A DNA stretch of 60,294 nucleotides from Candidatus Kaiserbacteria bacterium (GCA_016217965.1 JACRFI010000002.1:1-60294), one strand, 5' to 3'. Counted from the first letter of the stretch, positions 5,469 through 59,820 are shown. The notes: generated by a model from the sequence alone, not told the origin. Made by a program: numbers and translations.

Positions 5469-5594
5469 CCCGGTAGTGAAATTTCGGCTAGTGTACATCT
5501 GTGACTATGTTTCTGTCGCGATTTTCATGTAGATGCAATTGGTAATTCGTCAACCGAAGCGCCTGCGGCGCAAGCCGAAATTCTACTAACCGGG
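5469..5594. repeat. TIR-bounded intergenic element, copy E1
   Basis: The termini cccggtagtgaaatttcggc ... gccgaaattctactaaccggg are inverted repeats. A second copy lies at 15707-15839 with the two termini swapped. Confidence 0.65.
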
Positions 5595-5666
5595 TGTAGC
5601 ATGCGAGCGCGGCGTGGACAGTGGATCTTAAGCTTGGTTTTGCTTGTACAATAGGGAGACATAGCC

Positions 5667-8600: not shown

Positions 8601-11423
8601 GCAGAAAGCCCATTGCTGTCCCAGAAGCAAAAAGATAGCCTTATTGGTACTGCTAATCGGGTAGACAGAAATAGTGAACGGATAGAAACCTTGGGTACGA
8701 ACGGAGGGTCTGTTGCCGAGATGAGAAGTCTCGCGAGTAGATCAATTGATGATTTGGGAGGGGCTCTTTCAACAGCGCAAGCTGGCTTAAAAAATGAAAA
8801 CACAACGCTCACAGTTCAGGCTGCAAGTGACGCACGGGCACTCAGTGTTGCCACAGCAGAATTTAACAATGCTGGGAAGTCACTGTGGTCCTCTGCAATC
8901 TCTGCAGATAGAGCATGGAGTTCCTACTATGAAGCGGACGAGGCATCATTGAATGCATACATAGAGTCGTGGAAAGTCTCGGGTGAGGGCTGGGATCTTG
9001 GTGACATACAAACCTATACTCCTGGACTTCCTGGATCGGGAGATATAGTGCCAGGATTTGTCGCTCCGCCTACCGACCAAGGGGATCTTCTTAGTATGGA
9101 TTCTTCTGCATGGAATTACGACGCTGAAGGTTGGGTCAAGACCGATTGGGATAGCGAGTCCGTGTTGAAGGTGACGGAAGATAAAGTATTCGAGTCCATA
9201 CTTGGAGAAGATACGCGAGCTTGGCAGCAGGTCGAACAAATGCTTGCTGATGAGCAAGAACAAGCCATACAGAGATTTCTTAAGCGATGGGAAAATGAAC
9301 CAGAAAACTGGGAAACAGCGGTAGATCCTTGGCGCCCGCTTTCCGCTGCAGCTCAGGAGAAAGCTGATGAATTGCAAAAAAAGATTGCTGCGGAGCATGA
9401 AAAGATACGAGCCGCTAAGGCGCGGCTTGAAGCGGGATATGGAACTGATTTTGAAAAAATCCCGACTCGAAAATTATTTGGGGAGTCAGAAGCGAACAAA
9501 TGGCGAGACGATCTCTGGACTGCACAAAAAGACTTGGCGCAATACGAAGCCGATCTAGCAAAGGTTAAGAGAGACGATATTGATGCCGGATACATTGACA
9601 CGGCAGGTGAAATGAACAAGGCGGATCTGGCTGCGCGAGATGCTCTCTCGGGGCAATTACGAGAGCACGAGGAAAAACTGGAATCGGTTATTGCAGCGGA
9701 GAGGCAAGAACGCAACAACGTAGTCCAGCAATATATAGATGACAAGCGTATGACGAGAGATATGTTAGAGGCTGTGACAAAGGAAAGCCGAGGAATAACT
9801 GAGGGAGCGTTAGGAAAGGATTGGGAGAAAGGGAAGTTTTTCGGATTTGCACGTGACCTGCAATATTTGCAATTAGCTCGGGAGGATGCGCTGATACGGT
9901 CCGACGGGTGTGGCGAAAATTGTGCGATAAAACTATATCCGGAAGGATCGCAGCCACCAACGCAGTGGGATAGGGCTGTTGCCGCAGTTAAGGCATGTTT
10001 TGGTTTCTGCGGTGATGCGACTCCAACTCAAATTCCGACCGAAGTTCCCACAACAGATTGGTCAGCGTATAAGGATTCAGATGTTCTATCGTACAGACCT
10101 GAATCACCGCTCGACCATGATATCCCTGGAGATGATGTTGCGGAGCAGCCAGGAAGAATTTTCGACGATGGACAGCTGGATCAACCGCATGATTATGATG
10201 GCGACGAAGAATATGCAAAGTTAAACAATGAGCAGAAAGAGAACGCGATACGTGCATTGCAAGATCAATATAAGGAAGCCTATGCCGAATTCAAAAATGC
10301 TGATCGTAACGATACGCAGAAATTGTTTAGCGCACTAAGAGCGCAAAATGATCGAAATGAGTTTTTTGCGAGGCTTCAGGAAGATCAAAGCTATCAAGAA
10401 TACATGAAGAATAGACCGATAACGGTGTCAGATTTGCCCGATGGTGATGACCTCGAGGACAATGAAATTTTCGGGGTTTCGTATAACAAAGAGAGTGCAA
10501 AATTAATGGAGGAATTAGAGACGTGGATCAAGGACGACTGGGATAAACATTACAAGGACGTACCGCCTGAACCTCCAACGAGATCTGTTGCTCCGTCTGC
10601 GACGAAAGTAGAGCCACCAGATCCGTTTCCCGCTGATGCGACCGATGTGCCGGAAAATGTAAAGAGGCCGCCGAAAGACGAGCCGGATTTTCCTGCGGAT
10701 GCGACTGATGTGCCGGAGAGCGTGAAGCGACCTCCGAAAGCCGAGACTCCTCCTCCTGCTGCCGCTAAAACGCCACCGACGCCAGGCCCTACAGCTTCGG
10801 GGCCCGGTCCAGGCCCTTCGGGAGGCAATGCAGACGCGAGTGGCTCTGGCTCTGGTTCTGGGGGAGGTCTTGGCGGAATCTTTGAAAAGCTGATGAATGC
10901 GCTCAAAGATTTCTTTAAACCAAAAGAGCAAAAGCAGAACCAGCAACAACAGCAAGCGCAGCAAGGGCAGCAGACGCCACCAGCGATAGCCTCTATCTTT
11001 GCGCGCCCACCGACGGTCAAGAAAGGTGAGAAGACACGTTTGATATGGGGAAGTGTGAACACAACGAGTTGCATCGTATTTGATGAACTTAGCAATGAGG
11101 TTGCGAGAGGCACTTCTGACGGAGCTGCGACAACGACCGCACTTTTTGCGACGACAAAATTCAAAGTTACTTGCCAGGGGAAAAATGGCTCCCAAGCCTC
11201 AGCAAGCACACAGGTAACTGTCACGGCAGCAACTCCTACGTTAAATAAAACAAAAACGAATACTACAACCACAAAAACCAACACAAACACGCAAACGAAA
11301 ACGCAAACTAATACGAACACAAACACAGAGACTCAAACAAATACCGGGGCCAAGAATAGTACTGACGAGATATGCCACCCATCACTGCCGTACGATGAAT
11401 TTGTCGCGTGCGTGCTTCGTTGA
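5667..11423 (+). CDS. giant (1918 aa) modular surface/secreted protein with an RlpA-like DPBB module
   Basis: Single uninterrupted ORF with these parts:
- signal anchor, aa 11-33
- 8-Cys head, aa 48-113
- P/S/G-rich linker
- aa ~385-456 EGTAYGG..TASKEF..VSVNDTGPFVAGRYLDTTPAGLNAAKLG, resembling the RlpA/DPBB signature
- 8x DPDPGFEN, aa 571-672
- long E/K/A-rich coiled-coil-like region
- several internal duplications
- beta-rich Ig-like ~75 aa followed by a T/N/Q low-complexity tail. Confidence 0.8.
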   Translation: MFVKSHREGHFFGLLLMLLSISLLLALIVEIPTSRAANAPMGDPSPQCMGDYCTFKPFKGSPYLTGSCAEPKQGEKPTKDGLIGKPCQVTKNVTTCTGKCLGEQPLCGNATSCNGEKTKDAKETEKKAIEDYEDNQQKASEKPKQAPESPNDSGGDAPKEDSQQPGNKGPQTGMEPDFSKYGEWSQPPQQSPPSNSPPSSSPDFKFSDFGERGSIQPSQTDERFSDFGEGGNPPQSGKTGPQPSTFGNPPPQGSGGDDSQGDGIGDKLGEIASKAKDALKDSATDFGELLDDLKKWLEDLREQLKGEVEKPSPTPSIGDEIAKGETKPELDPSGAKRERLDKGTINSGKGANVCALGVCGKQFTRDQLNNLKGKIIPGVRTSKFNEVEGTAYGGKNNPNAFTTASKEFPAGARILEYNLKTGDTVAVSVNDTGPFVAGRYLDTTPAGLNAAKLGDLSNPDVAYMGQTGPTGYMGKYSSFDDAIAAYEARQGVGSGPYSSPVASTLPPFSPPPVNYPGPSFTNETAPDSWYDNSGWDYSGFENVTDWNDLSSTYVQEEGLYSGQQGGQELGSDPDPGFENETGGNDPDPGFENEVDGNDPDPGFENDLPPTVPGARQLGDELPVEGFRPDPGFENYLGNDPDPGFENEQVGNDPDPGFENEIDGNDPDPGFENDADFDSEQERLSELERAGKELQRQEDETFASTMARNLQDWTEQAFASDMARNIQEWTETRLAEIQQAAIDRLSGDTWEKYLDWDYGEPTPEGDDVAEQPGDQFKQKDTFDPEEERLAEQKSLGDELQRQAEEKAAEKEKRAEEIAKNLDNEDVERGKEMSQPEDEVAKQARQEQQKKEEEEKRAAKQKEVDEAMKKSAEADKVKEEAQKRAEAADKRIEERSKALSDATEKKKKAEEAAKKSGGALKQAKDNLNENVNGIKNLKGAAERGLRTAEEVGKQTGDEDQVRSKARAAIGRIDTDPLRDAAESPLLSQKQKDSLIGTANRVDRNSERIETLGTNGGSVAEMRSLASRSIDDLGGALSTAQAGLKNENTTLTVQAASDARALSVATAEFNNAGKSLWSSAISADRAWSSYYEADEASLNAYIESWKVSGEGWDLGDIQTYTPGLPGSGDIVPGFVAPPTDQGDLLSMDSSAWNYDAEGWVKTDWDSESVLKVTEDKVFESILGEDTRAWQQVEQMLADEQEQAIQRFLKRWENEPENWETAVDPWRPLSAAAQEKADELQKKIAAEHEKIRAAKARLEAGYGTDFEKIPTRKLFGESEANKWRDDLWTAQKDLAQYEADLAKVKRDDIDAGYIDTAGEMNKADLAARDALSGQLREHEEKLESVIAAERQERNNVVQQYIDDKRMTRDMLEAVTKESRGITEGALGKDWEKGKFFGFARDLQYLQLAREDALIRSDGCGENCAIKLYPEGSQPPTQWDRAVAAVKACFGFCGDATPTQIPTEVPTTDWSAYKDSDVLSYRPESPLDHDIPGDDVAEQPGRIFDDGQLDQPHDYDGDEEYAKLNNEQKENAIRALQDQYKEAYAEFKNADRNDTQKLFSALRAQNDRNEFFARLQEDQSYQEYMKNRPITVSDLPDGDDLEDNEIFGVSYNKESAKLMEELETWIKDDWDKHYKDVPPEPPTRSVAPSATKVEPPDPFPADATDVPENVKRPPKDEPDFPADATDVPESVKRPPKAETPPPAAAKTPPTPGPTASGPGPGPSGGNADASGSGSGSGGGLGGIFEKLMNALKDFFKPKEQKQNQQQQQAQQGQQTPPAIASIFARPPTVKKGEKTRLIWGSVNTTSCIVFDELSNEVARGTSDGAATTTALFATTKFKVTCQGKNGSQASASTQVTVTAATPTLNKTKTNTTTTKTNTNTQTKTQTNTNTNTETQTNTGAKNSTDEICHPSLPYDEFVACVLR

Positions 11424-11719: not shown

Positions 11720-12277
11720 ATGGCACTCATCATCGTCTTAGGAGCAGCGGCCCTTCTTATCATCTGGGTTATTTTTGCCTACAACAGGCTGGTGAGCCTC
11801 ACGAATCGTTCAGAAGAAGCTTGGTCGGATATTGATGTGCAATTGAAGCGCCGATACGACCTCATCCCGAATCTTGTTGAGATGGTAAAAGGATATGCTT
11901 CGCACGAAGCGGGTACTTTGCAGAAGGTGACCGAGGCGCGCACGAAAGCAATGGGTGCGCAGACGGTAGGAGAGCATGCGGCGGCGGAAAATATGCTGAC
12001 CGGTGCGCTAAAATCTTTGTTTGCGGTTTCGGAGAGCTATCCAGACCTTAAAGCGAACACTAATTTCGTAGAACTCCAGCGCGAACTATCCGATACGGAA
12101 AATAAGATACAGGCAGCGCGGCGCTTCTATAACACTGTCGTGCAAGATCTTCAGAACGCGCTTGAGCAATTCCCGTCAAATATCATCGGAAACATCTTTG
12201 GCTTTAAGACGAGAGAATTCTTCGCGCTCGGAGAAAACGAACAGGCGGCAAAGGATCCCGTTAAGGTTCAATTTTAG
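11720..12277 (+). CDS. lemA: LemA family protein
   Basis: The start was moved to MALIIVLGAAALLIIWVIFAYNRLV (TM helix plus YNRL). WSDIDVQLKRRYDLIPNLV and ARRFYN are typical LemA motifs. Confidence 0.88.
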   Translation: MALIIVLGAAALLIIWVIFAYNRLVSLTNRSEEAWSDIDVQLKRRYDLIPNLVEMVKGYASHEAGTLQKVTEARTKAMGAQTVGEHAAAENMLTGALKSLFAVSESYPDLKANTNFVELQRELSDTENKIQAARRFYNTVVQDLQNALEQFPSNIIGNIFGFKTREFFALGENEQAAKDPVKVQF

Positions 12278-12307
12278 GGTATAGCCACTAGGGTTTAGGG
12301 TATAGGG
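12275..12307. repeat. period-7 TAG array (TAGGGTA-like x5), left inverted repeat of the four-helix-bundle cassette
   Basis: tagggta tagccac tagggtt tagggta taggg has TAG every 7 nt. The first TAG is the lemA stop codon. It matches 27 of 33 positions of the reverse complement of 12680-12712. Confidence 0.8.
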
Positions 12308-12308
12308 C

Positions 12309-12668
12309 ATGCAATCCTATCGAGAACTCATCGTTTGGCAGAAAAGTAGAAAGTTTGTAACTGAAGTTTATCGTCTTACCGAGAACTTCCCGAAGTCGGA
12401 AATGTTTGGCCTTACAAGCCAAATGCGACGCGCGGTTGTTTCAATACCTGCGAACATTGCGGAAGGATATGCGCGTAAGCACAGAGCAGAATATATTCAA
12501 TTTTTGAGGATAAGTTATGGATCGGGAGCCGAACTTGAGACATTTTTGCTGCTTATTGAGGATTTGAAATATGTTACGGCAGAAGATTTGCGGTCTATCA
12601 GCGAAAAGTTGCAAGAAATTATGAGGATGCTAAATAAATTGATTGATTCTCTGAAGCCAAAGTCTTAA
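12309..12668 (+). CDS. four-helix-bundle protein (23S rRNA intervening-sequence protein family)
   Basis: 119 aa. YRELIVWQKS..., SQMRRAVVSIPANIAEGY and GSGAELETFL are hallmark motifs of this family. Confidence 0.85.
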   Translation: MQSYRELIVWQKSRKFVTEVYRLTENFPKSEMFGLTSQMRRAVVSIPANIAEGYARKHRAEYIQFLRISYGSGAELETFLLLIEDLKYVTAEDLRSISEKLQEIMRMLNKLIDSLKPKS

Positions 12669-12679
12669 TTTGCATTTAA

Positions 12680-12712
12680 CCCTATTGGCTATACGCTAGT
12701 GGCTAAACCCTA
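12680..12712. repeat. period-7 CTA array, right inverted repeat of the four-helix-bundle cassette
   Basis: CTA occurs at 12682, 12689, 12696, 12703 and 12710. The array is the reverse complement of the left array. Confidence 0.8.
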
Positions 12713-12717
12713 TCTCT

Positions 12718-13623
12718 ATGGCATCTTTGTATACTCAGCAAGGTAAGAATATCCGAAAGACGTGGCTTCTCATGACCGCGTTCTTCCTGATGGTCATCGC
12801 GATCGGATATTTCATTGCGTGGTATCTCCAGGAGCCGGGGCTTTTGTATGTTGCGGTTGCGTTCTCCGTCATGATGAATATCACTGCGTATTGGTTTTCT
12901 GACAAGATTGCGCTTGCCGCGACGGGGGCGAAAGAGGCCGACCCGAATGAGTTTCGCGAGCTGCACCGAATTGTTGAGAATCTCGCGATAACCGCCGGGC
13001 TTCCGAAGCCGCGTGTGTACGTTATTAACGACCCGGCGCCAAATGCGTTTGCTGCCGGAAGAAATCCGGAGCACGCCGTTGTCAGCGTCACCACAGGCCT
13101 CTTATCGATCTTAGATAGAAGTGAGCTAGAGGGCGTGATAGCACACGAGCTCTCGCACATTGGGAACCGAGACATCCTCGTCATGACAGTAGCGGTCGTT
13201 CTCGCGGGCTTTATTTCTGTGATAGCAGACCTATTCCTCCGCATGACATTCTGGGGCGGTGGGCGAGACAGAGACAACAAGGGGAATGCGCTTATTATGA
13301 TTCTTGGGCTTGTCGGCGTTATTCTCGCACCTATCGCGGCGCAGCTCATCCAACTCGCAATTTCGCGGAAACGCGAATTTTTGGCGGACGCTTCCGGGGC
13401 TTTGCTTACGAGGTATCCAGATGCACTTGCATCGGCGCTCCAGAAAATTTCCTCATACGACGCGCCGATGCAGCGGGCAAGCCACGCGACAGCGCATCTG
13501 TTCATTTCGAATCCGTTCGGTGCAGGTGCACAAGGTGGAAAATTCATCGCAAAGCTTTTCTCCACACATCCGCCAGTTGGGGAACGTGTTACGGCTCTCA
13601 TGGGGATGCGCGGCAAGGTGTAA
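12718..13623 (+). CDS. htpX: M48-family zinc protease HtpX
   Basis: 301 aa. HELSHIGNRD (HExxH), four TM segments and the STHPPVGERV tail. Confidence 0.9.
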   Translation: MASLYTQQGKNIRKTWLLMTAFFLMVIAIGYFIAWYLQEPGLLYVAVAFSVMMNITAYWFSDKIALAATGAKEADPNEFRELHRIVENLAITAGLPKPRVYVINDPAPNAFAAGRNPEHAVVSVTTGLLSILDRSELEGVIAHELSHIGNRDILVMTVAVVLAGFISVIADLFLRMTFWGGGRDRDNKGNALIMILGLVGVILAPIAAQLIQLAISRKREFLADASGALLTRYPDALASALQKISSYDAPMQRASHATAHLFISNPFGAGAQGGKFIAKLFSTHPPVGERVTALMGMRGKV

Positions 13624-15706: not shown

Positions 15707-15839
15707 CCCGGTAGTAGAATTTCGGCTTGTCTCATCTGAACAGATCAACGACAGTCAACTATGAATCAAAAGTGCAACATAGCGTGTTCTTACGACAGCG
15801 ACATTGCGCTGCGCGCCAGCCGAAATTTCACTAACCGGG
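15707..15839. repeat. TIR-bounded intergenic element, copy E2
   Basis: Termini cccggtagtagaatttcggc ... gccgaaatttcactaaccggg. The right terminus ends 2 nt before the ATG at 15841. Confidence 0.65.
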
Positions 15840-15840
15840 T

Positions 15841-16209
15841 ATGAGACCTTCTCCGCAATGGGGGCTACTTGTCGTGCGTGTGGGACTCGCAGGAGTGCTT
15901 TTGTGGTTCGGTGCGCAGCAGCTTCTCCATGCAGCCGATTGGGTGGGGTACGTGCCCGCGTATGCGACATCACTCTCTGGTCTTTCTGCGGTGACAATAG
16001 TGCTTGCGAATGGCAGTGCGGAAATAGCATTCGGGCTCCTGCTTCTTTTGGGGCTTTTTACGCGGATATCTGCGCTCATCATGGGTGTGCACTTGGCTCT
16101 CATCGCACTTTCGCTCGGGCTGAACCAGATAGGTGTGCGTGATTGGGGGCTAGCGGCTGCATTATTTGGTCTTGCGATCGCGGGGCCGGGGATGTGGAGC
16201 CTCGATTAG
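15841..16209 (+). CDS. DoxX-family membrane protein
   Basis: 122 aa, 4 TM. LVVRVGLAGVLLWFGAQQL and GLFTRISALIM are DoxX-like. Confidence 0.65.
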   Translation: MRPSPQWGLLVVRVGLAGVLLWFGAQQLLHAADWVGYVPAYATSLSGLSAVTIVLANGSAEIAFGLLLLLGLFTRISALIMGVHLALIALSLGLNQIGVRDWGLAAALFGLAIAGPGMWSLD

Positions 16210-24542: not shown

Positions 24543-24676
24543 GGATTGCGAATCTCTTTCTCGGCATAAATTTTTTGCCGTCGCTATCTGGCGCTGCTGC
24601 GCCAGCGCTCGGTCTCGGCCTCGTCAGGCCTGCGAAGACGGCAAAAAACTTACGCCTTCGACGAGTTTCGCAATCC
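24543..24676. repeat. branched-hairpin intergenic repeat, copy A1
   Basis: Outer stem GGATTGCGAAtCTC/GAGtTTCGCAATCC. Long stem GGCATAAATTTTTTGCCGTC/GACGGCAAAAAACTTACGCC. Inner hairpins CTGGCGC-TGCT-GCGCCAG and GGCCT-CGTC-AGGCC. The near-homologous copy is at 47051-47176. Confidence 0.8.
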
Positions 24677-24795: not shown

Positions 24796-24927
24796 GGAAG
24801 GGGGTCGGGGAACGGGAGTTCCCCGTGGAGGAAGGCAGCGAAGCGTTGGAAAACCGTGGGCGACCAAGAAAATAACGAGTGCAATGAGTATATTTTCTGA
24901 AGTACTCTTGTGGTGTTTCCAAAGTGC
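24796..24927 (+). repeat. tRNA-trailer element, copy R1 (candidate structured RNA)
   Basis: The ~60-nt core GGGGTCGGGGAACgGGAGTTCCCCGTGGAGGAAGGCAGCGAAGCGTTGGAAAaCCGTGGG starts 28 nt after tRNA-Arg. The same core lies 39 nt after tRNA-Phe. The closing strand GTGTTTCCAAAGTGC is displaced by a ~55-nt insertion. Confidence 0.6.
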
Positions 24928-25854: not shown

Positions 25855-25893
25855 CAAAGAGCAATGCGATTTTGGGGCGGGAGTCAGACTTTG

Positions 25894-25968
25894 GGAAGGG
25901 GTCGGGGAACTGGAGTTCCCCGTGGAGGAAGGCAGCGAAGCGTTGGAAACCGTGGGTTTCCAAAGCGC
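25894..25968 (+). repeat. tRNA-trailer element, copy R2 (candidate structured RNA)
   Basis: Same core as R1, differing by one substitution and one 1-nt indel. Hairpins GGGGAAC-TGGA-GTTCCCC and TTGGAAAC-CGTGG-GTTTCCAA. Confidence 0.6.
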
Positions 25969-30468: not shown

Positions 30469-30891
30469 ATGGCTGGCATAACAGTGAAGCAGGTTACGCA
30501 ACTTAAAGTAGTTGTCGCACATGTACCCGGCTCGCTCGCGAGAGTTGCCGAGGCGCTCCAGAAGGCTGATGTGAATATCGAGGGAACATGCCATACCGAA
30601 GGAACGGATGAGACAGCACCTTTCCGAATGATTGTTGATAAGCCTGACGAGGCGAAGAAAGCGATCGAGTCTCTCGGAGAGCCTGTAACATTCGAGCAAT
30701 GCCTTTCGGTGCAAAGCGAAGATGACAAACCGGGATTCATAGCAAGAGTTGCGCGCAAACTTGGGGCCGCAAGTATAAACATTCAGGCTATTTACCACAC
30801 ATCATCCGGAAGGGGCGGAAGCGCAACGATGTATATTTCTGTCGACAAGGCGAACTTGCCAAAAGCACTCGAACTCTTAAAGTCCCTCTAG
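30469..30891 (+). CDS. tandem ACT-domain protein
   Basis: There are two repeats of the ACT-like pattern (LKVVVAHVPGSLARVAEALQKADVNI; SVQSEDDKPGFIARVARKLGAASINI). The start is uncertain (30364 or 30469). Confidence 0.6.
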   Translation: MAGITVKQVTQLKVVVAHVPGSLARVAEALQKADVNIEGTCHTEGTDETAPFRMIVDKPDEAKKAIESLGEPVTFEQCLSVQSEDDKPGFIARVARKLGAASINIQAIYHTSSGRGGSATMYISVDKANLPKALELLKSL

Positions 30892-31973
30892 TTCCCGGTG
30901 TTATCCAGCTTGAGAGCGCCATTCGCACTGAGAGAGTGTGCATCGGGAAATTCTTTTCTTTGTGCGCGGAAGTAACCCGCGAGCGCAATCATCAGTGCGT
31001 TGTCCGTTGAGAATTCCTGTGGGGGAATGAGGAGCAAGATACCGGCCTTTTCACATTCTTCAGCGAATCGTGCGCGTATGTGTTTGTTTGCAGAGACACC
31101 GCCGCCGATAACGATGCTCTTGGCGCCATGTTCCTCTGCAGCGCGCATCGTTTTCGATATCAGGACATCGGCGGCGGTGTCTTCGAATTCTCTCGCGATT
31201 TGTCTCTTTAATTCATCGCTCAGTGGTGAATGAGCCTCGACCATTCTCAGTACTGAGGTTTTTAAACCAGAGAACGAAAAATCGAAATTTTTCTCATGTA
31301 TCATTGGGCGAGGCAACTTGAAATGCGCTTCTAGCTTGGAGCTCCTGGCTTCAAGGGCAAGGCGGGAAATATGCGGGCCTCCGGGATAAGGTAGGCCAAG
31401 CATGCGTGCAACCTTGTCGAACGCTTCTCCCACAGCGTCGTCCCGCGTGCGTCCAATATACTCGTATCGCATCCATTCCCTCGAGAGTATTAATTCAGTA
31501 TGGCCGCCCGAAATTAACAACGAAAGCATTGGAAATTGTATTTCATTTGAAATTTGAAATTTGAAATTTGAAATTGCATCGTTTCCGCTCGTGAGGGCGG
31601 AAATGATGATATGTCCTTCCATATGGTTAACAGGCACGACAGGGATGTTCCATTTTTTTGAGAGCTCTTGCGCAAAATTGATTCCCGTCCATAAGCATGG
31701 CTCGAGCCCGGGGCCGTGAGTCACTGCTATCGCATCTATCTGAGGCGCGTCAGGCCCTCCGAGCACTTGCTGAAGGAGGCGAGGTAGATTTTCTTTGTGT
31801 TTGTTCTTTGCAAGGTTTGGATATATGCCGCCGTACTTCGCGTGCAAGTCCGATTGGGAATCAACCACATTAGCCAAGATCTCGAAAGAAAAATCTGTGC
31901 CAAATTTGCCGCTCGCTTCTATCAGCGCGACTCCGGTGTCGTCCGCGGAGGTCTCGATTCCAAGAATTTTCAT
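30888..31973 (-). CDS. tsaD: tRNA N6-adenosine threonylcarbamoyltransferase TsaD
   Basis: MKILGIETSADDTG, VNHMEGH, LLISGGHT and VIGGGVSAN. The start was moved to MKILGIE. Contains a heptamer-repeat-encoded insertion. Confidence 0.92.
   Translation of the reverse strand: MKILGIETSADDTGVALIEASGKFGTDFSFEILANVVDSQSDLHAKYGGIYPNLAKNKHKENLPRLLQQVLGGPDAPQIDAIAVTHGPGLEPCLWTGINFAQELSKKWNIPVVPVNHMEGHIIISALTSGNDAISNFKFQISNEIQFPMLSLLISGGHTELILSREWMRYEYIGRTRDDAVGEAFDKVARMLGLPYPGGPHISRLALEARSSKLEAHFKLPRPMIHEKNFDFSFSGLKTSVLRMVEAHSPLSDELKRQIAREFEDTAADVLISKTMRAAEEHGAKSIVIGGGVSANKHIRARFAEECEKAGILLLIPPQEFSTDNALMIALAGYFRAQRKEFPDAHSLSANGALKLDNTGN
31545..31572. repeat. perfect heptanucleotide tandem repeat (ATTTGAA x4) inside tsaD
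   Basis: catttgaaatttgaaatttgaaatttgaaattgc. On the coding strand, AATTTCA x4 encodes ISNFKFQISN. Confidence 0.9.
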
Positions 31974-32030
31974 CCCGCAGTTATAGCGCATTATGCGGCC
32001 TGCAGCCACCAGGAGGGTTATAATTGCCAC

Positions 32031-38480: not shown

Positions 38481-39755
38481 ATGGAAAGTCACGCCCGCTA
38501 CCATGAGGCGATACGGTATCTCGAATCATTCGCTCGCGAGAAGGGTGCGCCGGATTACATGCGGGACCAGAAGAATCCCGCCGTGTATCTGAAGAGGATG
38601 AAGCGTTTGTTAAGGCTAGTTGGAAACCCTGAGAAGCATTTTAAGTTTGTGCACGTGACCGGCACATCTGGAAAAGGCACTGTTGTCTCGATGGTGCATG
38701 AATCGCTTCGTGCCGCAGGAAAGCGTGTCGGCAGCTTTACATCTCCGTACGTGGTTGCTGCGATCGAGAAAATCCAGGTGGATGATTTGTATATTTCTCC
38801 GAATGACTTTGCAGATATTGTAGAAGAATTGAAACCCACCATCGAGAAAGAACATCTGGAAGGAGCGTTCGGTAGCCCTACGTATTTCGAAGTCTTTTTT
38901 GCAGTTGCGCTCATCTATTTCAAACGCCGAAAATGCGAGTGGGTGCTTCTCGAGGTCGGCGCAGGGGGACGGTATGATGCGACGAACATTATCGAGAAGC
39001 CAGCTGTTACTGCAGTCACAAGTATCGATTATGACCACGTGCAAATCCTGGGTAAAACGCTCCTTTCCATTGCGGACAACAAAGCGGGAATTATAAAAAA
39101 AGGTTCAGCATTTTTTACTACCGAAAAAAGAAAAGCGCTTCTGTCGCTCTTTCGGCGCACTTGCCAAGGAAAGGATGCGGCATTCACCGCACTTCCTGCG
39201 GTAAATGATTATCAGGAAAATAATAAAACGTTGGCGAGAGCGATATGTCGAAGTATCGGCATTCCCGACACAGACATTGAAAAAGGGATACGCACAGCAA
39301 AGCTTCCGTGCAGGTTCGAAGTGATGGAGGCTCAGCCCCGAGTTGTTCTTGATGGCGCACACAATCGGGCAAAAATGCGGAGCACTGCGTCAAACGTGCG
39401 AGCGATCCAGTTTGGCAAGCTGCACCTCATTGTCAGTGTAAAAGACGACAAAGACCTTAGCCCAGTACTCGGCGAGATAGTTCCGCTTACAGACAATATC
39501 TATGTGACAGAGTTTTTCTCGCCAACTCTAAAGAGCGCGCGTCTTGAGGACATTGCGCGGGTTGCAACATCACTGGCAAAGAAAGGTACAGCAATACGTA
39601 TCGTGCCGAACGCTGCCGATGCATATGCAGCAGCGAGGGGTATTGCAAAGCACGACGATGTCATTCTTGTGACAGGCTCGTTCTATCTCGCGGGTGAGTT
39701 GCGTAAAGGTTGGTATTCGGAAGACTGGGTGCTCGAACACAGAAAAAGCTTCTAG
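38481..39755 (+). CDS. folC: folylpolyglutamate synthase / dihydrofolate synthase (Mur-ligase family)
   Basis: VHVTGTSGKGTV P-loop, EVGAGGRYDATN and DGAHN. The start was moved to the ATG at 38481. Confidence 0.88.
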   Translation: MESHARYHEAIRYLESFAREKGAPDYMRDQKNPAVYLKRMKRLLRLVGNPEKHFKFVHVTGTSGKGTVVSMVHESLRAAGKRVGSFTSPYVVAAIEKIQVDDLYISPNDFADIVEELKPTIEKEHLEGAFGSPTYFEVFFAVALIYFKRRKCEWVLLEVGAGGRYDATNIIEKPAVTAVTSIDYDHVQILGKTLLSIADNKAGIIKKGSAFFTTEKRKALLSLFRRTCQGKDAAFTALPAVNDYQENNKTLARAICRSIGIPDTDIEKGIRTAKLPCRFEVMEAQPRVVLDGAHNRAKMRSTASNVRAIQFGKLHLIVSVKDDKDLSPVLGEIVPLTDNIYVTEFFSPTLKSARLEDIARVATSLAKKGTAIRIVPNAADAYAAARGIAKHDDVILVTGSFYLAGELRKGWYSEDWVLEHRKSF

Positions 39756-39780
39756 GTGCTAGCTTTCAGCTTCTAGCTTA
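39753..39780. repeat. period-7 TAG array (reverse-orientation CTAGAAG family)
   Basis: taggtgc tagcttt cagcttc tagctta. The first TAG is the folC stop. The reverse complement matches CTAGAAGCTGAAAGCTAGCACCTAGAAG at 51206. Confidence 0.75.
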
Positions 39781-39791
39781 AAATACTAGAC

Positions 39792-43421: not shown

Positions 43422-43542
43422 CGCGAAACTCTTTCTCGGCAGGTGTTTCGTCAACCACGAAAAATTTCTGCTGAAATTTTTCTCCGTCCGTCGCCACTCC
43501 TCCCGAGGGTTTCCGAAACACCTGCCTTCGACGAATTTCGCG
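43422..43542. repeat. branched-hairpin intergenic repeat, copy B1
   Basis: GCGAAACTCTTTCTC...GACGAATTTCGC outer stem. GGCAGGTGTTTCG/CGAAACACCTGCC stem. Inner hairpin GAAAAATTTC-TGCT-GAAATTTTTC. Fills the gap between the convergent cupredoxin and trxB genes. Confidence 0.75.
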
Positions 43543-44478: not shown

Positions 44479-44497
44479 AATTCGGCAATTGTAAGCT

Positions 44498-44564
44498 CCA
44501 AGTTCCAATTTCCAAAATCCAACGAGAATTCTTTGGAATTTGTTTCTTGGGATTTGGGATTTCC
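44498..44564. repeat. inverted pair of heptamer arrays (CCAANNN x4 / TTGGNNN x4)
   Basis: ccaagtt ccaattt ccaaaat ccaacga ... ttggaat ttgtttc ttgggat ttgggat. Together they can form a long imperfect hairpin just downstream of the ftsZ stop. Confidence 0.7.
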
Positions 44565-44565
44565 A

Positions 44566-47050: not shown

Positions 47051-47176
47051 CACGGGACTCTTTCTCGGCATAACTTTTTTGCCGTCGCTATCTGGCGTTG
47101 CTACGCCAGCGCTCGGTCTCGGCGCCGTCGCGCCTGCGAAGACGGCAAAAGAGTTATGCCCTCGACGAGTTCCGTG
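47051..47176. repeat. branched-hairpin intergenic repeat, copy A2
   Basis: Same architecture as A1, with paired changes: CTGGCGT-TGCT-ACGCCAG, GGCGC-CGTC-GCGCC, and outer stem CACGGGACTC/GAGTTCCGTG. Its 3' 23 nt overlap the ybeY C-terminus and stop. Confidence 0.8.
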
Positions 47177-47909: not shown

Positions 47910-47952
47910 TAGAATAGGTGATAGGCAATAGGTTTTAGGGATTGGGAATAGA
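47910..47952. repeat. period-7 TAG array (TAGGNNN family)
   Basis: tagaa taggtga taggcaa taggttt tagggat tgggaa tagag. Same vocabulary as the arrays flanking 12309-12668. Confidence 0.65.
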
Positions 47953-48007: not shown

Positions 48008-48038
48008 TTAGAAGCTGGGACCTAGAAGCTAGCAGCTA
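48008..48038. repeat. period-7 CTAG array (CTAGAAG family)
   Basis: ttagaag ctgggac ctagaag ctagcag cta. The final CTA is the TAG stop of the minus-strand hisS-like gene. Confidence 0.75.
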
Positions 48039-49971: not shown

Positions 49972-50090
49972 AAAAACTCTTTTTCGGCGCAGGGTTTCCG
50001 TCGCACGGATATTTTTCTGCTGAAAAATTCCTCGAGCTCGCGCCGATCGCGCTCGCTAGGCGCCGTTAACCCTGCGCCTCAGCGAGTTTT
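49972..50090. repeat. branched-hairpin intergenic repeat, copy B2
   Basis: AAAAACTC/GAGTTTTT outer stem. GGCGCAGGGTT/AACCCTGCGCC stem. Inner hairpin GGAtATTTTTC-TGCT-GAAAAATTCC. Lies between the divergent lepB and pth genes. Confidence 0.7.
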
Positions 50091-50143: not shown

Positions 50144-50737
50144 ATGACTTGGGTCGTTGTCGGGCTAGGAAATCCGGGAGGGGAGTATGAAAATACGCGC
50201 CACAACGCTGGGCGTATGGCGGTTGCGCAATTCGTGAAGTCAAAAAAAGTTGGTGAGTGGAAAATTGATGCAAAAGCGAAAGCGCTTGTCGCGCGCGGGA
50301 TGATAGAGCGCTCTCTTGCGGTATTTGTACTGCCGGAAACGTATATGAATAAATCCGGGGGTGCACTTTTGAAGTTCGTGAAGAGCATGAAGGCAGCCGA
50401 ACACCTCGTCATTGTCTACGACGACCTCGATTTGCCACTCGGTTCGATGAAAATTTCCTATGATCGCGGCAGTGGCGGGCACAAAGGCATCGAATCAGTG
50501 ATGCGCGCGGTGAAGACGAAACGATTCTGGCGCATTCGAATCGGAGTTTCCGCGTCGACCGCATCTGGGGAGATAAAAAAACCGCTGGGAGAGAAAAAAG
50601 TGAACGATTTTATCCTCGATGTGTTCAAGCCGCACGAATTCGGAGCGCTAAAGCCCGTTTTCAAACGTGTCGAACATGCGCTCGAAACAATTCTGCTCGA
50701 AGGCGGAATGAGGGCGATGAATCAGTTCAATGGGTAG
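50144..50737 (+). CDS. pth: peptidyl-tRNA hydrolase
   Basis: The start was moved to MTWVVVGLGNPGGEYENTRHNAG. YMNKSG and GSGGHKG. Confidence 0.92.
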   Translation: MTWVVVGLGNPGGEYENTRHNAGRMAVAQFVKSKKVGEWKIDAKAKALVARGMIERSLAVFVLPETYMNKSGGALLKFVKSMKAAEHLVIVYDDLDLPLGSMKISYDRGSGGHKGIESVMRAVKTKRFWRIRIGVSASTASGEIKKPLGEKKVNDFILDVFKPHEFGALKPVFKRVEHALETILLEGGMRAMNQFNG

Positions 50738-50769
50738 CTTCTAGGTGCGAGCTTCTAGAAGCGAGCTTT
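50735..50769. repeat. period-7 TAG array (CTAGAAG family, reverse orientation)
   Basis: tagcttc taggtgc gagcttc tagaagc gagcttt. The first TAG is the pth stop. The array ends at the stop of the convergent gene 50769-51101. Confidence 0.75.
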
Positions 50770-51101
50770 TATATTGATTGGGGTTTTTCAGGTATGTTCA
50801 ATATCTGAGTTACGTGTTGGTCAATCATAAATGGTTGTTCCATGCCTTTTTGATGTCCGCTGTCAAGAAGGTCTCGCGTCATTTTTACAACCGCTTTTCT
50901 TTCCTCGCTAGTAATACCCGTTTTTGCGTCAGAGTTCATTAAATCTTCCGCTTTTCCTAATAGATCTCTCATGGATTTGTTAAATTCGTCTTGCGAGTTC
51001 TTGCCAATAGCACCCTCTGCTGCCTTCGTAAGCTTTTCGGCATCTCTTCCAAGTTGTCGCGGAGAGTCCTGTTTATTTCTCTGAAAAAGTCCACGCATCA
51101 T
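50769..51101 (-). CDS. hypothetical helical protein
   Basis: 110 aa, K/E/D-rich. No family recognised. Confidence 0.45.
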   Translation of the reverse strand: MMRGLFQRNKQDSPRQLGRDAEKLTKAAEGAIGKNSQDEFNKSMRDLLGKAEDLMNSDAKTGITSEERKAVVKMTRDLLDSGHQKGMEQPFMIDQHVTQILNIPEKPQSI

Positions 51102-51205
51102 AATTCTCGAAGGTTATTGATATAGTTTAACGATAACTCGAAAATCAATCTTTCACACCGTCGCATGGGGATAGCATCCGAAGGTGTTTGTGACCCTCCC
51201 TTTGT

Positions 51206-51238
51206 CTAGAAGCTGAAAGCTAGCACCAAGAAGCTATG
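51206..51238. repeat. period-7 CTAG array (CTAGAAG family)
   Basis: ctagaag ctgaaag ctagcac caagaag cta. The final CTA is the TAG stop of rpsA. Confidence 0.75.
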
Positions 51239-52391
51239 CTACCGGCTTCAACGTCATTCTTCGTTCCTTTGGTTCGAAGAGCGTGATTGTGAACGGATAC
51301 ACTTTTCCAAGTTCCAATTTCGCGCGGAGTTCCGGCTCGTCTTTGAATTCTGAGATGTGCACGAGTCCTGCGACGCCTTCTTCTATCGATGCGAGCGCGC
51401 CATGTTTGTTGTACTTGATGACGACTGCATCCACTTTCTGGTCTTTTTTGTATTTTGCCGCAGCTGCTTTCCATGGATCGTCGGCGAGAGCCTTGATGGA
51501 GAGCGAAACCTTGTCGTCTTTTATCTCAATTACTTTTACTTTCACCGCTTCGCCGACTTTGTAGCGAGTCTTCGGATTCTCCACGAGCGCCCAATCCATT
51601 TCGGAGATGTGCACCAGCCCTTCGAGGCCTTCTTCGAGTTTAACGAAGACGCCGAAATCAGTCGCACCCGTGACGATGCCATCAAGCGTATCGCCGACAC
51701 CGTATTTTTCGACGAGTGAAGAGCGCTCAGATGTGCCCGCGCCCTTCTCGCTGAAAATAAGTTTCTGCTCTTTCGGGTTCGCAGTGATAATGAGGACTTC
51801 GATGCGTGTTCCAACTAACTTTTTGAGTTCGACGAAAATCTTGTCTTTGTCTCCATCAGGAACGCGCGGGTAGTGCGCGGGAGCGAGTTGCGATGCGGGA
51901 AGGAATCCTTGGAGCCCATTCCACGCGATGATAAGCCCGCCTTTGTTTGCGTCGGTTACGGGGAGCTCAAATACTGTTTTCTTTTGCGTTGCCGTTTCAG
52001 CCTCGTTCCAAATGAGTGCTTGGCGCGCTTCGCGCAAGGAGAGCTCAATGTAGCCCTCTGTATTGTCGGTGCCAACGACTTTCGCCGTAATGGTGTCTCC
52101 AATGTGGACGTTCTTCAATGCCTCGCGTGCCGAGAGATATTCACGGCCGTAAATGATGCCTGTACCAAAAGGATGCAGGTCAACGAACACGCGTGCTCGC
52201 CCGACTGCTATGACCGGACCTTCGACGACGTCATCTATCGCCGGCGGTTTTGGCGCCGACTGCAGAAGCTCGTCCATCGGCCCCTGTTTTGCCACCACTT
52301 TTTCCTCTTCTTCTGCGTCTTCTACATCACGAGTCTTTTCAGACTCTTTAGTTGCTGTCGCTAACATTGTATTTTGCGGTACCTTCTGCAC
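51234..52391 (-). CDS. rpsA: 30S ribosomal protein S1 (four S1 domains)
   Basis: 385 aa. Repeated S1 OB-fold motifs (GxVxxVxxFGxFVxL..GxxGLxHISE) occur four times. Confidence 0.88.
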   Translation of the reverse strand: MQKVPQNTMLATATKESEKTRDVEDAEEEEKVVAKQGPMDELLQSAPKPPAIDDVVEGPVIAVGRARVFVDLHPFGTGIIYGREYLSAREALKNVHIGDTITAKVVGTDNTEGYIELSLREARQALIWNEAETATQKKTVFELPVTDANKGGLIIAWNGLQGFLPASQLAPAHYPRVPDGDKDKIFVELKKLVGTRIEVLIITANPKEQKLIFSEKGAGTSERSSLVEKYGVGDTLDGIVTGATDFGVFVKLEEGLEGLVHISEMDWALVENPKTRYKVGEAVKVKVIEIKDDKVSLSIKALADDPWKAAAAKYKKDQKVDAVVIKYNKHGALASIEEGVAGLVHISEFKDEPELRAKLELGKVYPFTITLFEPKERRMTLKPVA

Positions 52392-52481
52392 CTTCCGTAT
52401 CTGTCGTGAGGCAGGTGGGTATAAACCGCTTCCTATTAATAATCTCCCACAAGGGAGAGGCGCAATATATATGACAATAAG

Positions 52482-52580
52482 TTAGAAGTCAAAAGGCAAA
52501 AGTCAGAAGTTACTGTTATAATCCCGCCATGTATTTCTGTTTTTCCTATAAGCTAGAAGTTAGCACCTAGAAGCTATGAT
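52482..52580. repeat. two adjacent period-7 arrays upstream of, and running into, the 52576 start codon
   Basis: First array: ttagaag tcaaaag gcaaaag tcagaag (52482-52509). Second array: ctataag ctagaag ttagcac ctagaag ctATGat (52546-52580). Confidence 0.7.
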
Positions 52581-53196
52581 ACTCACGTACCACGAGGGAG
52601 AATGCATACGCGCGAGCGCGGGGGACACAACATTGGTTCTCGGCCCCATCTCAAAAGCAAGCAAGAACTTTAAGCCGACAAATTTTGGTGCCGATGTCGC
52701 GTTCGTTTCTCTCAATCATCCCGACATGAACGGCGCAGCCGAAGCAAGCCGTGGAGAGAAGCAGCCGTTCATTATTTTGGGGCCTGGAGAATATGAAGTG
52801 AAAGGCATTACGGTAGCCGGATTTCCATCGAAATCGAAATATGGGGGCGAGGAAAAAATAAATACGGTGTACGCGATAGATTTTGACGGCCTATCTGTTT
52901 TTTACCTCGGCGCTATTTCCGAACCTGAGTTGCCCAAGGACCTCTTGGAGATGGATGCCCCGGATATCGTCATTCTTCCGATAGGGGGCGGCGAAGTGCT
53001 TTCTCCAGCTGATGCCCAAAAACTTGCGGTGATGCTCGAAGCAAAGATCGTGATTCCTGTCCACTATGATGCGAAGACATTGAAGGTCTTCTTGAAGGAG
53101 GCAGGAGATGAGGCCGTGAAGCCAATCGAAAAGCTTACGTTGAAACCGAAGGACATTGTGGGGAAAGAGAATGAAGTCGTCGTTCTTAGCGTCTAG
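52576..53196 (+). CDS. MBL-fold metal-dependent hydrolase (UPF0173-like)
   Basis: 206 aa. The beta-lactamase-fold pattern is visible (DVAFVSLNHPDMNG; ILPIGGG; VIPVHYD). The assignment has moderate support. Confidence 0.55.
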   Translation: MILTYHEGECIRASAGDTTLVLGPISKASKNFKPTNFGADVAFVSLNHPDMNGAAEASRGEKQPFIILGPGEYEVKGITVAGFPSKSKYGGEEKINTVYAIDFDGLSVFYLGAISEPELPKDLLEMDAPDIVILPIGGGEVLSPADAQKLAVMLEAKIVIPVHYDAKTLKVFLKEAGDEAVKPIEKLTLKPKDIVGKENEVVVLSV

Positions 53197-53220
53197 CTTC
53201 TAGGGGCTAGTTTCTAGTTT
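53193..53220. repeat. period-7 CTAG array
   Basis: ctagctt ctagggg ctagttt ctagttt. The first TAG (53194-53196) is the stop of the MBL-fold gene. Confidence 0.75.
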
Positions 53221-53250
53221 TCGTGCAATAATGTAGCGGCGTGCATTTTC

Positions 53251-53280
53251 CTAGGAGCTAAAAGCTAGCAACTAGAAGCT
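53251..53280. repeat. period-7 CTAG array
   Basis: ctaggag ctaaaag ctagcaa ctagaag ct. Ends 6 nt before the ATG at 53287. Confidence 0.75.
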
Positions 53281-53286
53281 TTTCAT

Positions 53287-59720: not shown

Positions 59721-59820
59721 GTGCGAGAAAAGCTTCTGAAGGGGCTCTGCAGGCCGGCGGGCCGAAGCCCGAGCGATTTTTCAGCAGAAAAATTGCGTAC
59801 CCGGAAGAAGCTTTTCGCGC
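59721..59820. repeat. branched-hairpin intergenic repeat, copy B3 (reverse orientation)
   Basis: On the reverse complement: GCGAAAAGCTTCT...AGAAGCTTTTCTCGC outer stem, CAATTTTTC-TGCT-GAAAAATCG hairpin, and CGGGC-TTCG-GCCCG hairpin. Lies between pilin paralogues 4 and 5. Confidence 0.65.

Follow-up and report, generated by a model that had tools for sequence, protein, structure and literature searches.

Tandem repeats with a heptanucleotide unit have been known from cyanobacteria since around 1990 and were subsequently described in Xanthomonas, Beggiatoa and Coxiella; to our knowledge, none of them has an agreed origin or function. Here we analyse arrays of degenerate seven-nucleotide units, among them a (C)TAGAAG family, that lie at gene boundaries in a 60,294-nt stretch of DNA (the window) from Candidatus Kaiserbacteria bacterium, a member of the Candidate Phyla Radiation (CPR, or Patescibacteria; GCA_016217965.1 JACRFI010000002.1:1-60294). 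We document the architecture of these arrays, their family relations, their location at gene boundaries, their association with genes for four-helix-bundle proteins and the way in which reading frames accommodate them. The elements are of the same kind as the short tandemly repeated repetitive sequences (STRRs) of cyanobacteria and the stems of 23S rRNA intervening sequences (IVSs). We put at roughly 60% the probability that the arrays are the arms of heptad inverted-repeat elements that exist at the level of DNA, are probably selfish and are tolerated at gene ends.

The function of STRRs is unknown; roles in transcript stability or translational coupling have been proposed, and STRR hairpins lie between the co-transcribed hupS and hupL genes (PMC2670836). 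In Nostoc, heptad arrays can overlap start codons (bioRxiv 10.1101/2022.06.06.494920). GGGNATC heptamers of Xanthomonas and Nostoc are over-represented in non-coding DNA within 50 bp of the ends of open reading frames (ORFs), and 70-75 convergent pairs per genome are able to form stem-loops (Rehm et al. 2015; PMC4692102). TAACTGA repeats of Beggiatoaceae, Cyanobacteria and Bacteroidetes occur in 2-6 copies directly upstream of the starts of genes without a Shine-Dalgarno sequence, and a translational role was proposed for them (MacGregor 2015; PMC4679880). Finally, the Coxiella IVS, regarded as a selfish and horizontally spread element, carries an S23p ORF within the 23S rRNA gene and has a 28-bp stem; tandem GACAGAT heptamers, the copy number of which varies between strains, lie upstream of S23p, and RNase III cuts the stem at the first of them (PMC4990558). 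The kind of repeat analysed here is thus already known from STRRs, GGGAATC pairs, TAACTGA repeats and the Coxiella IVS; the lineage and the unit family are new.

Materials and methods

The window (50.6% G+C) derives from a groundwater metagenome, and a search for RNA-seq returned only three groundwater DNA metagenome runs, which were used for contig comparison. Relatives were collected via RpsA, yielding 80 loci (73-92% identity) from metagenome-assembled genomes of Candidatus Kaiserbacteria and other Paceibacterota, with about 20 kb available from each, labelled L001-L080; gene order from trxB to gyrA and beyond is kept across them. The census of arrays covers the window plus the 80 loci, together 1.35 Mb, of which crude ORF calls class about 90% as coding. 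Arrays were paired if they gave a reverse-complement match at 16 or more of 21 positions within 800 nt. Thirty-five window ORFs were scanned for protein families, 32 against Pfam and three against NCBIfam only. At the gathering threshold, Rfam matched tRNAs alone in the window, which holds no rRNA.

Results

Heptad arrays occupy gene boundaries in the window

The arrays and the genes that they touch, including a metallo-beta-lactamase (MBL)-fold gene preceded by a short upstream ORF (uORF), are as follows.

12275-12307: 5' arm of the bracket of the four-helix-bundle gene; TAGGGTA/TAGCCAC heptads, the first TAG being the lemA stop
12309-12668, plus strand: four-helix-bundle gene, 119 aa; 23S-rRNA-IVS protein, Avd-like, between two inverted heptad arrays
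12680-12712: 3' arm of the same bracket; CCCTA-type heptads, complementary to 12275-12307
39747-39791: AGCTTCT-type module with A-rich tail, filling the spacer from the FolC-like stop (TAG 39753-55) to ATG 39792
44492-44565: heptad hairpin in the ftsZ-to-trxB spacer; CCAAAAT / TTGGGAT units, without TAG
47910-47952: TAGGNNN-type array upstream of an S21-like gene
48008-48038: AGAAGCT-type module; last CTA is the stop of the HisS-like gene (minus strand); orthologous copy in L001
50735-50769: array a, AGCTTCT orientation; pth stops at its first TAG; paired in inverse orientation with array b
50769-51101, minus strand: 110-aa ORF without family match, bracketed by arrays a and b in the variable rpsA/pth spacer
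51206-51238: array b, AGAAGCT orientation; last CTA is the rpsA stop (minus strand); ortholog in L001
52482-52510: AAGTCAA-type period-7 array directly upstream of the -10 box of the MBL-fold gene
52517-52570, plus strand: MBL leader with -10 box TATAAT (52517-22), ancestral leaderless ATG (52529) and 13-codon uORF
52546-52578: array c, AGAAGCT orientation, between the ancestral and the present ATG (52576) of the MBL-fold gene
53187-53220: array d, AGCTTCT orientation; holds the MBL-fold stop (TAG 53194-96); 5' arm of the d/e hairpin
53251-53283: array e, AGAAGCT orientation; 3' arm of the d/e hairpin, ending 3-6 nt before ATG 53287

All eleven arrays that an earlier, sequence-only reading of the window had listed are present. 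In the window, TAG-TAG distances of 7, 14 and 21 nt were counted 19, 17 and 16 times, compared to 1-6 occurrences (typically 2-4) for distances that are not multiples of 3 or 7. CTA spacing behaves like that of TAG (19 at 7 nt, 17 at 14 nt), and the spacings of TAA and TGA in the window show no peak at 7, 14 or 21 nt. Self-similarity at lag 7 (at least 16 of 21 matches) was scored in 34 scanning windows, as against 0-11 for the other periods between 4 and 12. In good agreement with the view that CTAG is avoided elsewhere and concentrated at gene boundaries, the tetramer has 70 copies in the window (observed/expected 0.30 from base composition), 31 of them in the 9.5% of the window that lies outside ORFs.

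An array TAG is the stop codon of lemA (12275), of the FolC-like Mur ligase gene (39753), of pth (50735) and of the MBL-fold gene (53194), as well as of two minus-strand genes, the HisS-like gene (48036-38) and rpsA (51234-36); in total we counted seven gene ends stopped in this way, plus one uORF. Arrays also run into starts: array c ends in ATG 52576, and array e ends 6 nt before ATG 53287. GCTTCTAGAAGC at 50751 is, as had been stated, a perfect palindrome. Two other details of the sequence-only reading needed amendment. The 15-mer AGCACCTAGAAGCTA, described as shared, occurs exactly only once (52562), but seven copies are found at up to two mismatches, where 0.07 would be expected; and 52482-52509, taken for a (C)TAGNNN array, is of the AAGTCAA type with a single TAG. 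No partner of this AAGTCAA-type array was found in the window.

Two period-7 features had been missed: the hairpin at 44492-44565 and a perfect (ATTTGAA)x4.4 at 31545-31575. The latter is a heptamer array inside coding sequence, within an intact TsaD ORF (30888-32030, minus strand), and the TsaD protein exceeds its Pfam model by about 36 aa across the span of the repeat. Elsewhere in the window, neighbouring ORFs of 110, 118, 199 and 406 aa have no Pfam or NCBIfam match.

The arrays belong to a lineage-wide class with many units

The census yielded 146 period-7 arrays and 10-12 arrays each for periods 5, 8, 10, 11 and 13, making period 7 about 12 times commoner than the controls. Mostly intergenic arrays account for 102 of the 146 (about 70%), in the approximately 10% of the sequence that is non-coding, which bears out the enrichment outside coding DNA. 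The class is found across the lineage, contrary to the possibility, raised by the sequence-only reading, of a local duplication restricted to this contig region. The load is patchy: L001 (RpsA 88% identical) is rich in arrays, which are nearly absent from L002 (92%) and L003 (87%).

More than 100 different heptamers make up the 146 arrays, and many of them, such as CCAAAAT, CAAGTAT and ACAGTGA, have no stop codon. Other units seen are GTAGTTC, TAGGGTT and AAAGTCA; AAGCTAG, the unit of the (C)TAGAAG family, is the commonest, with seven arrays, and the 60-kb window alone holds at least four unit families. In all this the arrays resemble STRRs, which likewise consist of tandem 7-nt units in three or more copies, come in several families per genome, are intergenic and in part form hairpins. 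They differ in that the organism is a member of the CPR and not a heterocystous cyanobacterium, the units are different, and the arrays are short (3-6 units), degenerate and usually fill the spacer from stop to start.

This diversity of units bears on the proposal that the arrays are binding sites for an oligomeric nucleic-acid-binding protein that would contact one NAG per subunit every 7 nt, on the model of HutP on UAG-N4 or in the form of the pentameric four-helix-bundle protein, and would regulate the hairpin, termination or translation. HutP sites are UAG triplets at N4 spacing, and the TAG families display this TAG-N4 spacing; many units, including GTAGTNN, ACAGTGA, CAAGTAT and TAGCTTC, hold an xAG at a fixed position. 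Moreover, arrays travel with a conserved small four-helix-bundle protein (see below), the similarity of which tracks unit similarity and which is homologous to Avd, a nucleic-acid-handling accessory factor. However, the more than 100 units include A/C-only ones without AG, most families lack TAG, several unrelated families coexist in one 60-kb window, and a correlation of unit with protein is equally expected from simple linkage. The variety of units argues against a single sequence-specific site, and we consider binding sites an unlikely explanation.

Arrays form inverted pairs and hairpins that fill spacers

A reverse-complement partner was detected for 93 of the 146 arrays; the direct, reversed and complement controls gave 17, 6 and 13, respectively. 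Partners mostly lie 12-100 nt apart, with further clusters at about 370 nt and 526-640 nt. The set includes 54 hairpins of 61-162 nt with predicted folding energies (dG) of -10 to -59 kcal/mol, which fill the spacers: they start no more than about 20 nt past one gene and end no more than about 25 nt before the next, or overlap slightly. The upstream stop is often the first unit, and the downstream ATG often follows the last CTA. In the window, the d/e hairpin has a predicted dG of -36.1 kcal/mol (z -2.6), arrays c and d bracket the MBL-fold gene (array c being 85% complementary to 53194-53220), and arrays a and b bracket the 110-aa ORF. Pfam and NCBIfam scans detected no PF05635/TIGR02436 ORF inside the a/b, c/d or d/e pairs. 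Mismatches that would be tolerated as G.U on the sense strand are not favoured (82 versus 84, and 29 versus 34 in a second test), and therefore the complementarity looks maintained in DNA rather than at the level of RNA.

Hairpins of -20 to -40 kcal/mol directly after stop codons could be transcription terminators or 3'-end mRNA stabilisers built from repeats. The A-richer arm is on the 5' side in 42 of the 54 hairpins, as in bidirectional terminators, and at the rpsA 3' end the arrays take the place of the canonical A-tract/GC-stem/T-tract terminators, unlike the arrays in structure, that are seen in most relatives. Against this, arrays occur in 4% of convergent, 8.5% of co-directional and 10% of divergent spacers, i.e. 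are rarest in the convergent class, in which terminators would be enriched, although these classes and distances are approximate, since the gene maps are longest-ORF calls in which some starts are over-extended into arrays. Most arrays lack a T-run, the arms in L077 and L076 flank a separate canonical terminator, and solo arrays are found in 5' leaders. We rejected a terminator role on the spacer-type frequencies and regard this explanation as very unlikely.

A dispersed module in a class that is gained, lost and altered between close relatives

The (C)TAGAAG arrays represent, in either orientation, copies of a single module of about 31 nt, TAG CTTCTAG GTGCTAG CTTCTAG CTTCTAG (G), followed by an A-rich tail. 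The irregular GTGCTAG unit is common to the aligned copies, seven in the window and four in L001, and 39747-76 is 97% complementary to 51206-35, 11 kb away. Comparison of orthologous boundaries showed copies common to the window and L001 at the 3' ends of rpsA, pth and hisS and at the 5' end of the MBL-fold gene; L002 and L003 have none of these. The spacer between the MBL-fold gene and the next gene has CTAGCTT arms in the window, GTAGTTC arms in L001 and a non-periodic hairpin in L002, with a loop that is homologous in L001 and L002; the arms therefore turn over in place. In the ftsZ-to-trxB spacer, about 15 of 41 genomes have a heptad hairpin, the units of which differ between genomes; the others have an ordinary GC hairpin or only 9-25 nt there. 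The class is gained and lost between close relatives. Contigs of the source metagenome contained neither array length variants nor empty sites over 50.0-54.0 kb.

These relations weigh on the idea that the arrays are neutral microsatellites, which would arise by independent polymerase slippage at each site, with heptamers favoured and no element identity. Among the long simple repeats of many bacteria, heptamers are reported to be the most frequent unit (Mrazek 2007, as cited in PMC4679880), Coxiella strains differ in unit number (PMC4990558), and the non-periodic arms of L002 in the MBL-to-next-gene spacer hold single copies resembling the repeated units of L001. Independent slippage does not, however, account for copies 11 kb apart that share imperfections at 97% complementarity, for inverse-orientation partners far above controls, or for one unit family at differing loci (the lemA 3' end in the window and the rpsA 3' end in L057 and L064). 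We hold it to be very improbable. Among the three roles offered by the sequence-only reading, that of a slippage-generated boundary element comes nearest, inasmuch as the arrays are tandem 7-nt repeats confined to gene boundaries and the homologous Coxiella element varies in its number of heptamers; what it misses is that they are dispersed copies of one module and mostly make up one half of an inverted pair.

The convergent rpsA/pth spacer is a hot spot for cargo (window 50738-51233; L001 10934-12633; L002 11060-12844; L042 11150-11561). It holds the 110-aa ORF in the window, a REP-associated tyrosine transposase (RAYT) and a GNAT acetyltransferase in L001, a RAYT and two ORFs in L002, a four-helix-bundle gene in L042, and the hairpin alone in L050, L054 and L080. 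The window itself encodes a RAYT-like Y1 transposase (PF01797) at 2262-2957 on the minus strand, flanked by the GC-rich palindromes ATCGACCTCGTAGGTCGAT and ATCGACCTACGAGGTCGAT.

Repetitive extragenic palindromic (REP) sequences, their doublets (REPINs) and miniature transposable elements with inverted repeats (MITEs) are, like the heptad elements, intergenic palindromic doublets with hairpins of about 100 nt, in dispersed families that are patchy between relatives. Mobilisation of REPIN-like doublets by RAYT (IS200-like Y1 transposase) genes would agree with the presence of such a gene in the window and in the rpsA/pth spacer of L001, L002 and L003, with the position of the L001 transposase gene between two identical 44-nt array copies, and with the hairpin size and intergenic location. 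But REP arms are tied to RAYT and are not tandem-periodic, and the palindromes that flank the transposases here, ATCGACCTCGTAGGTCGAT in the window and GAACCTCGGACA... in L001, are likewise not heptad-periodic. In addition, L002 and L003 have the transposase and almost no arrays, and there are many unit families per genome. We rejected the RAYT/REPIN link on the grounds that the RAYT-flanking palindromes are a different sequence class, which makes it a highly implausible origin of the arrays. As to MITEs, inverted arms are present, and the only candidate for a target-site duplication is ATG...ATG at the MBL start.

A second family of dispersed palindromes, MITE- or REPIN-like and not period-7, consists of intergenic copies of about 120-135 nt with 40-nt arms and a loop of about 50 nt (24543-24676, 43422-43542, 47058-47174, 49975-50080 and 59730-59800); two of them share 90% identity over 117 nt.

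Heptad brackets enclose four-helix-bundle genes in several phyla

The product of 12309-12668 matches PF05635 (E 8e-42), TIGR02436 (E 7e-41) and the structure 2GSC from Xanthomonas campestris (E 3e-23), and more weakly Avd, the accessory protein of diversity-generating retroelements. The arms of the 12275-12712 cassette are predicted to pair in a stem of about 33 bp (dG -128.5 kcal/mol, z -2.9). With its four-helix-bundle ORF inside complementary termini, the cassette resembles the S23p IVSs of Coxiella and Leptospira; it differs in that it lies between protein genes, lemA and the 406-aa ORF, and not in helix 25 or 45 of 23S rRNA, and most of the other arrays bracket nothing or unrelated genes. 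Among the Kaiserbacteria loci, a single further copy of the gene was seen, in the rpsA/pth spacer of L042, and it too is bracketed, by TAGCTTA-type arrays.

A scan of metagenomes gave 80 homologues of the protein (46-71% identity) on contigs of 33-66% G+C, of which 73 had enough flanking sequence. Period-7 flanks were found upstream of 57 and downstream of 39 of these 73 (controls 12 and 5), and inverted-repeat flank pairs (at least 15 of 21 positions) in 61 (controls 10 and 7). Orientation is fixed relative to the gene: 53 of 57 upstream arrays are purine-rich, and 31 of 35 downstream arrays are pyrimidine-rich. The more identical the proteins are, the more alike their units tend to be (Spearman 0.34). 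On the same contigs, the density of arrays within 200 nt of the four-helix-bundle genes is about 10 times that found elsewhere, and hairpins with the same units but no ORF occur near these genes. The best plasmid matches come from Nostoc, Calothrix, Trichormus (Anabaena) and Riemerella, with flanking heptads in four of the five regions inspected. We conclude that one and the same type of bracket encloses four-helix-bundle (S23p, Avd-like) genes in different phyla. In the literature searched, we did not find this link stated; database comments or papers outside it may record it. The text of PMC4692102 yielded no link of GGGNATC repeats to four-helix-bundle genes; the GGGNATC system is close in that the solved structure nearest to the four-helix-bundle protein of the window, 2GSC, is from Xanthomonas campestris. 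Those heptamers differ in being G-rich and read as formers of G-quadruplexes, which the CTAGAAG family cannot form.

Bracket units also occur without the gene: the rpsA 3' end of L057 and L064 has a short-loop hairpin of TAGGGTT/TAGCCAC units, as in the window cassette. In the comparison over 11.4-13.4 kb, one contig from the source sample joins both cassette arms via a 12-nt loop; with a match of only 21 nt on one side, this contig probably represents a different locus or genome. Contig depth over the 3' heptad arm (12673-12739, metagenome run X1) exceeds that of the genome around it about 8-fold (375 versus 45), and the TAGGGTT/TAGCCAC arm family therefore appears abundant in the sampled community.

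Reading frames accommodate the arrays at stops and starts

The sequence-only reading had placed emphasis on six-frame translational insulation, in which a TAG every 7 nt would stop ribosomes in all frames on both strands. Several observations speak for selection of this kind. Seven gene stops are array TAGs; TAG is enriched 1.7-fold among units; and the stops that touch arrays are 26 TAG, 13 TAA and 4 TGA (60% TAG), compared with a background of 410, 557 and 378 (30%). The lineage, moreover, is one in which the geometry of stops and starts should matter: a Shine-Dalgarno-like 4-mer precedes only 9% of ATG-initiated ORFs in the window and L001-L080, and TAnnnT boxes peak sharply with their ends 6-9 nt upstream of ATGs, which suggests that leaderless mRNAs are common in Kaiserbacteria.

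The MBL-fold gene illustrates this geometry. In most genomes its -10 box lies 6-7 nt from the ATG. In the window, L001, L007, L021, L033, L051 and L058, an insert of 35-50 nt separates the leaderless ATG from the real one, and each of the seven inserts holds a heptad array of a differing unit. Insert length modulo 3 is 2 in six of the seven (chance about 0.007, binomial), and the uORF that begins at the ancestral start therefore ends in an ATGA overlap (four genomes) or 5-8 nt upstream of the ATG (two, including the window). The window uORF (52529-52570) runs through array c and stops at the array TAG 52568-70, 5 nt before ATG 52576, as insulation would have it.

The unit statistics across the 146 arrays do not support insulation as the organising principle. 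A stop on at least one strand is present in 113 units where 105 are expected, stops on both strands are present in 37 where 34 are expected, and TAA stands at 0.72; many unit families have no stop at all. TAG does cover three frames on at least one strand in eight of the eleven window arrays, in partial agreement with the sequence-only reading, but on both strands in only one; when any stop codon is counted, three frames on both strands are covered in four. Four of the seven MBL-leader arrays are read through as uORF without an in-frame stop, and both the inverted partners and the arrays in divergent spacers (10%) are left unexplained. We rejected general selection for stop codons on these unit statistics, and judge the insulator explanation to be decidedly unlikely. 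TAACTGA repeats, too, are stop-containing heptamers repeated at start codons; there one unit dominates in direct repeats bar one indirect, and here many units occur, mostly as inverted pairs.

Other repeats in the window

The copies of a 57-nt direct repeat (95% identical; 24796-24852 and 25893-25949) are found downstream of tRNA-Arg and tRNA-Phe, at a distance of 28-38 nt; the repeat is rich in G and contains the palindrome GGGGAAC..GTTCCCC. The 28-nt motif GCGC(A/C)AGCCGAAATT..ACTAACCGGGT is conserved at 5568-5595, at 15813-15840 and, in L002, upstream of pth; it abuts the ATG exactly at 15841 and in L002 and is possibly a shared leader or regulatory element. A 1918-aa ORF (5667-11423) has internal tandem repeats of 39, 63 and 12 nt and a weak lytic-transglycosylase-like double-psi beta-barrel (DPBB) domain, and resembles the giant surface proteins of CPR bacteria.

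Discussion

The picture that we favour is one of heptad inverted-repeat elements kept at the level of DNA as repeats of a selfish or mobile kind. Both the periodicity and the complementarity would be upheld by slipped-strand changes in the number of units and by copying from arm to arm and from copy to copy, and the elements would persist exactly at gene boundaries by being harmless there. In one orientation, the terminal TAG, with the TAGs in other frames, would end the upstream gene at once; in the other, the terminal CTA would run into ATG (CTATG) and supply the start. In keeping with such tolerance, rpsA invariably stops at TAG where an array abuts it, and at TAA in most relatives. An insert after a leaderless ATG could be rescued by a short coupled uORF, since this lineage seldom uses Shine-Dalgarno sequences and often uses leaderless mRNAs. 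A co-transcribed inverted pair should form a duplex of 25-33 bp; because such a duplex is a natural substrate of RNase III, cleavage of transcripts at these boundaries is a likely side-effect, by analogy with the Coxiella IVS.

Several points weigh against this interpretation. Co-transcription of the arms, duplex formation and cleavage by RNase III are, in this organism, predictions drawn from that analogy. Neither a transposase nor a target-site duplication nor an empty/filled pair within a species was demonstrated; the sole candidate duplication, ATG...ATG at the MBL start in the seven genomes, is only suggestive. For 53 of the 146 arrays, including the counterparts of array c in other genomes, we detected no partner. 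The window and L001 agree well in the sequence of the module, and this conservation could reflect function and not homogenisation. Source-metagenome contigs over 50.0-54.0 and 11.4-13.4 kb showed no array length variants, and ongoing slippage was thus unseen. Finally, the period of exactly 7 is left without explanation.

For annotation, the repeats mean that stops, starts and short uORFs can be supplied by the elements themselves, and ORF callers extend genes into them. For the organism, the same architecture is found in a reduced CPR genome in which non-coding DNA is scarce, with elements occupying whole stop-to-start spacers. What deserves further work is the bracket that encloses four-helix-bundle genes in different phyla: its presence in 61 of 73 homologues makes the question of who makes or uses heptads testable. 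It is a tentative possibility, on the doubtful side, that heptad arrays and the four-helix-bundle gene together make up one widespread element with gene-bearing ('full') and ORF-less ('empty') forms, with the protein recognising or propagating the arms. If this is true, one element would unify cyanobacterial STRRs, Xanthomonas GGGAATC pairs, S23p rRNA intervening sequences and the boundary arrays of CPR bacteria.

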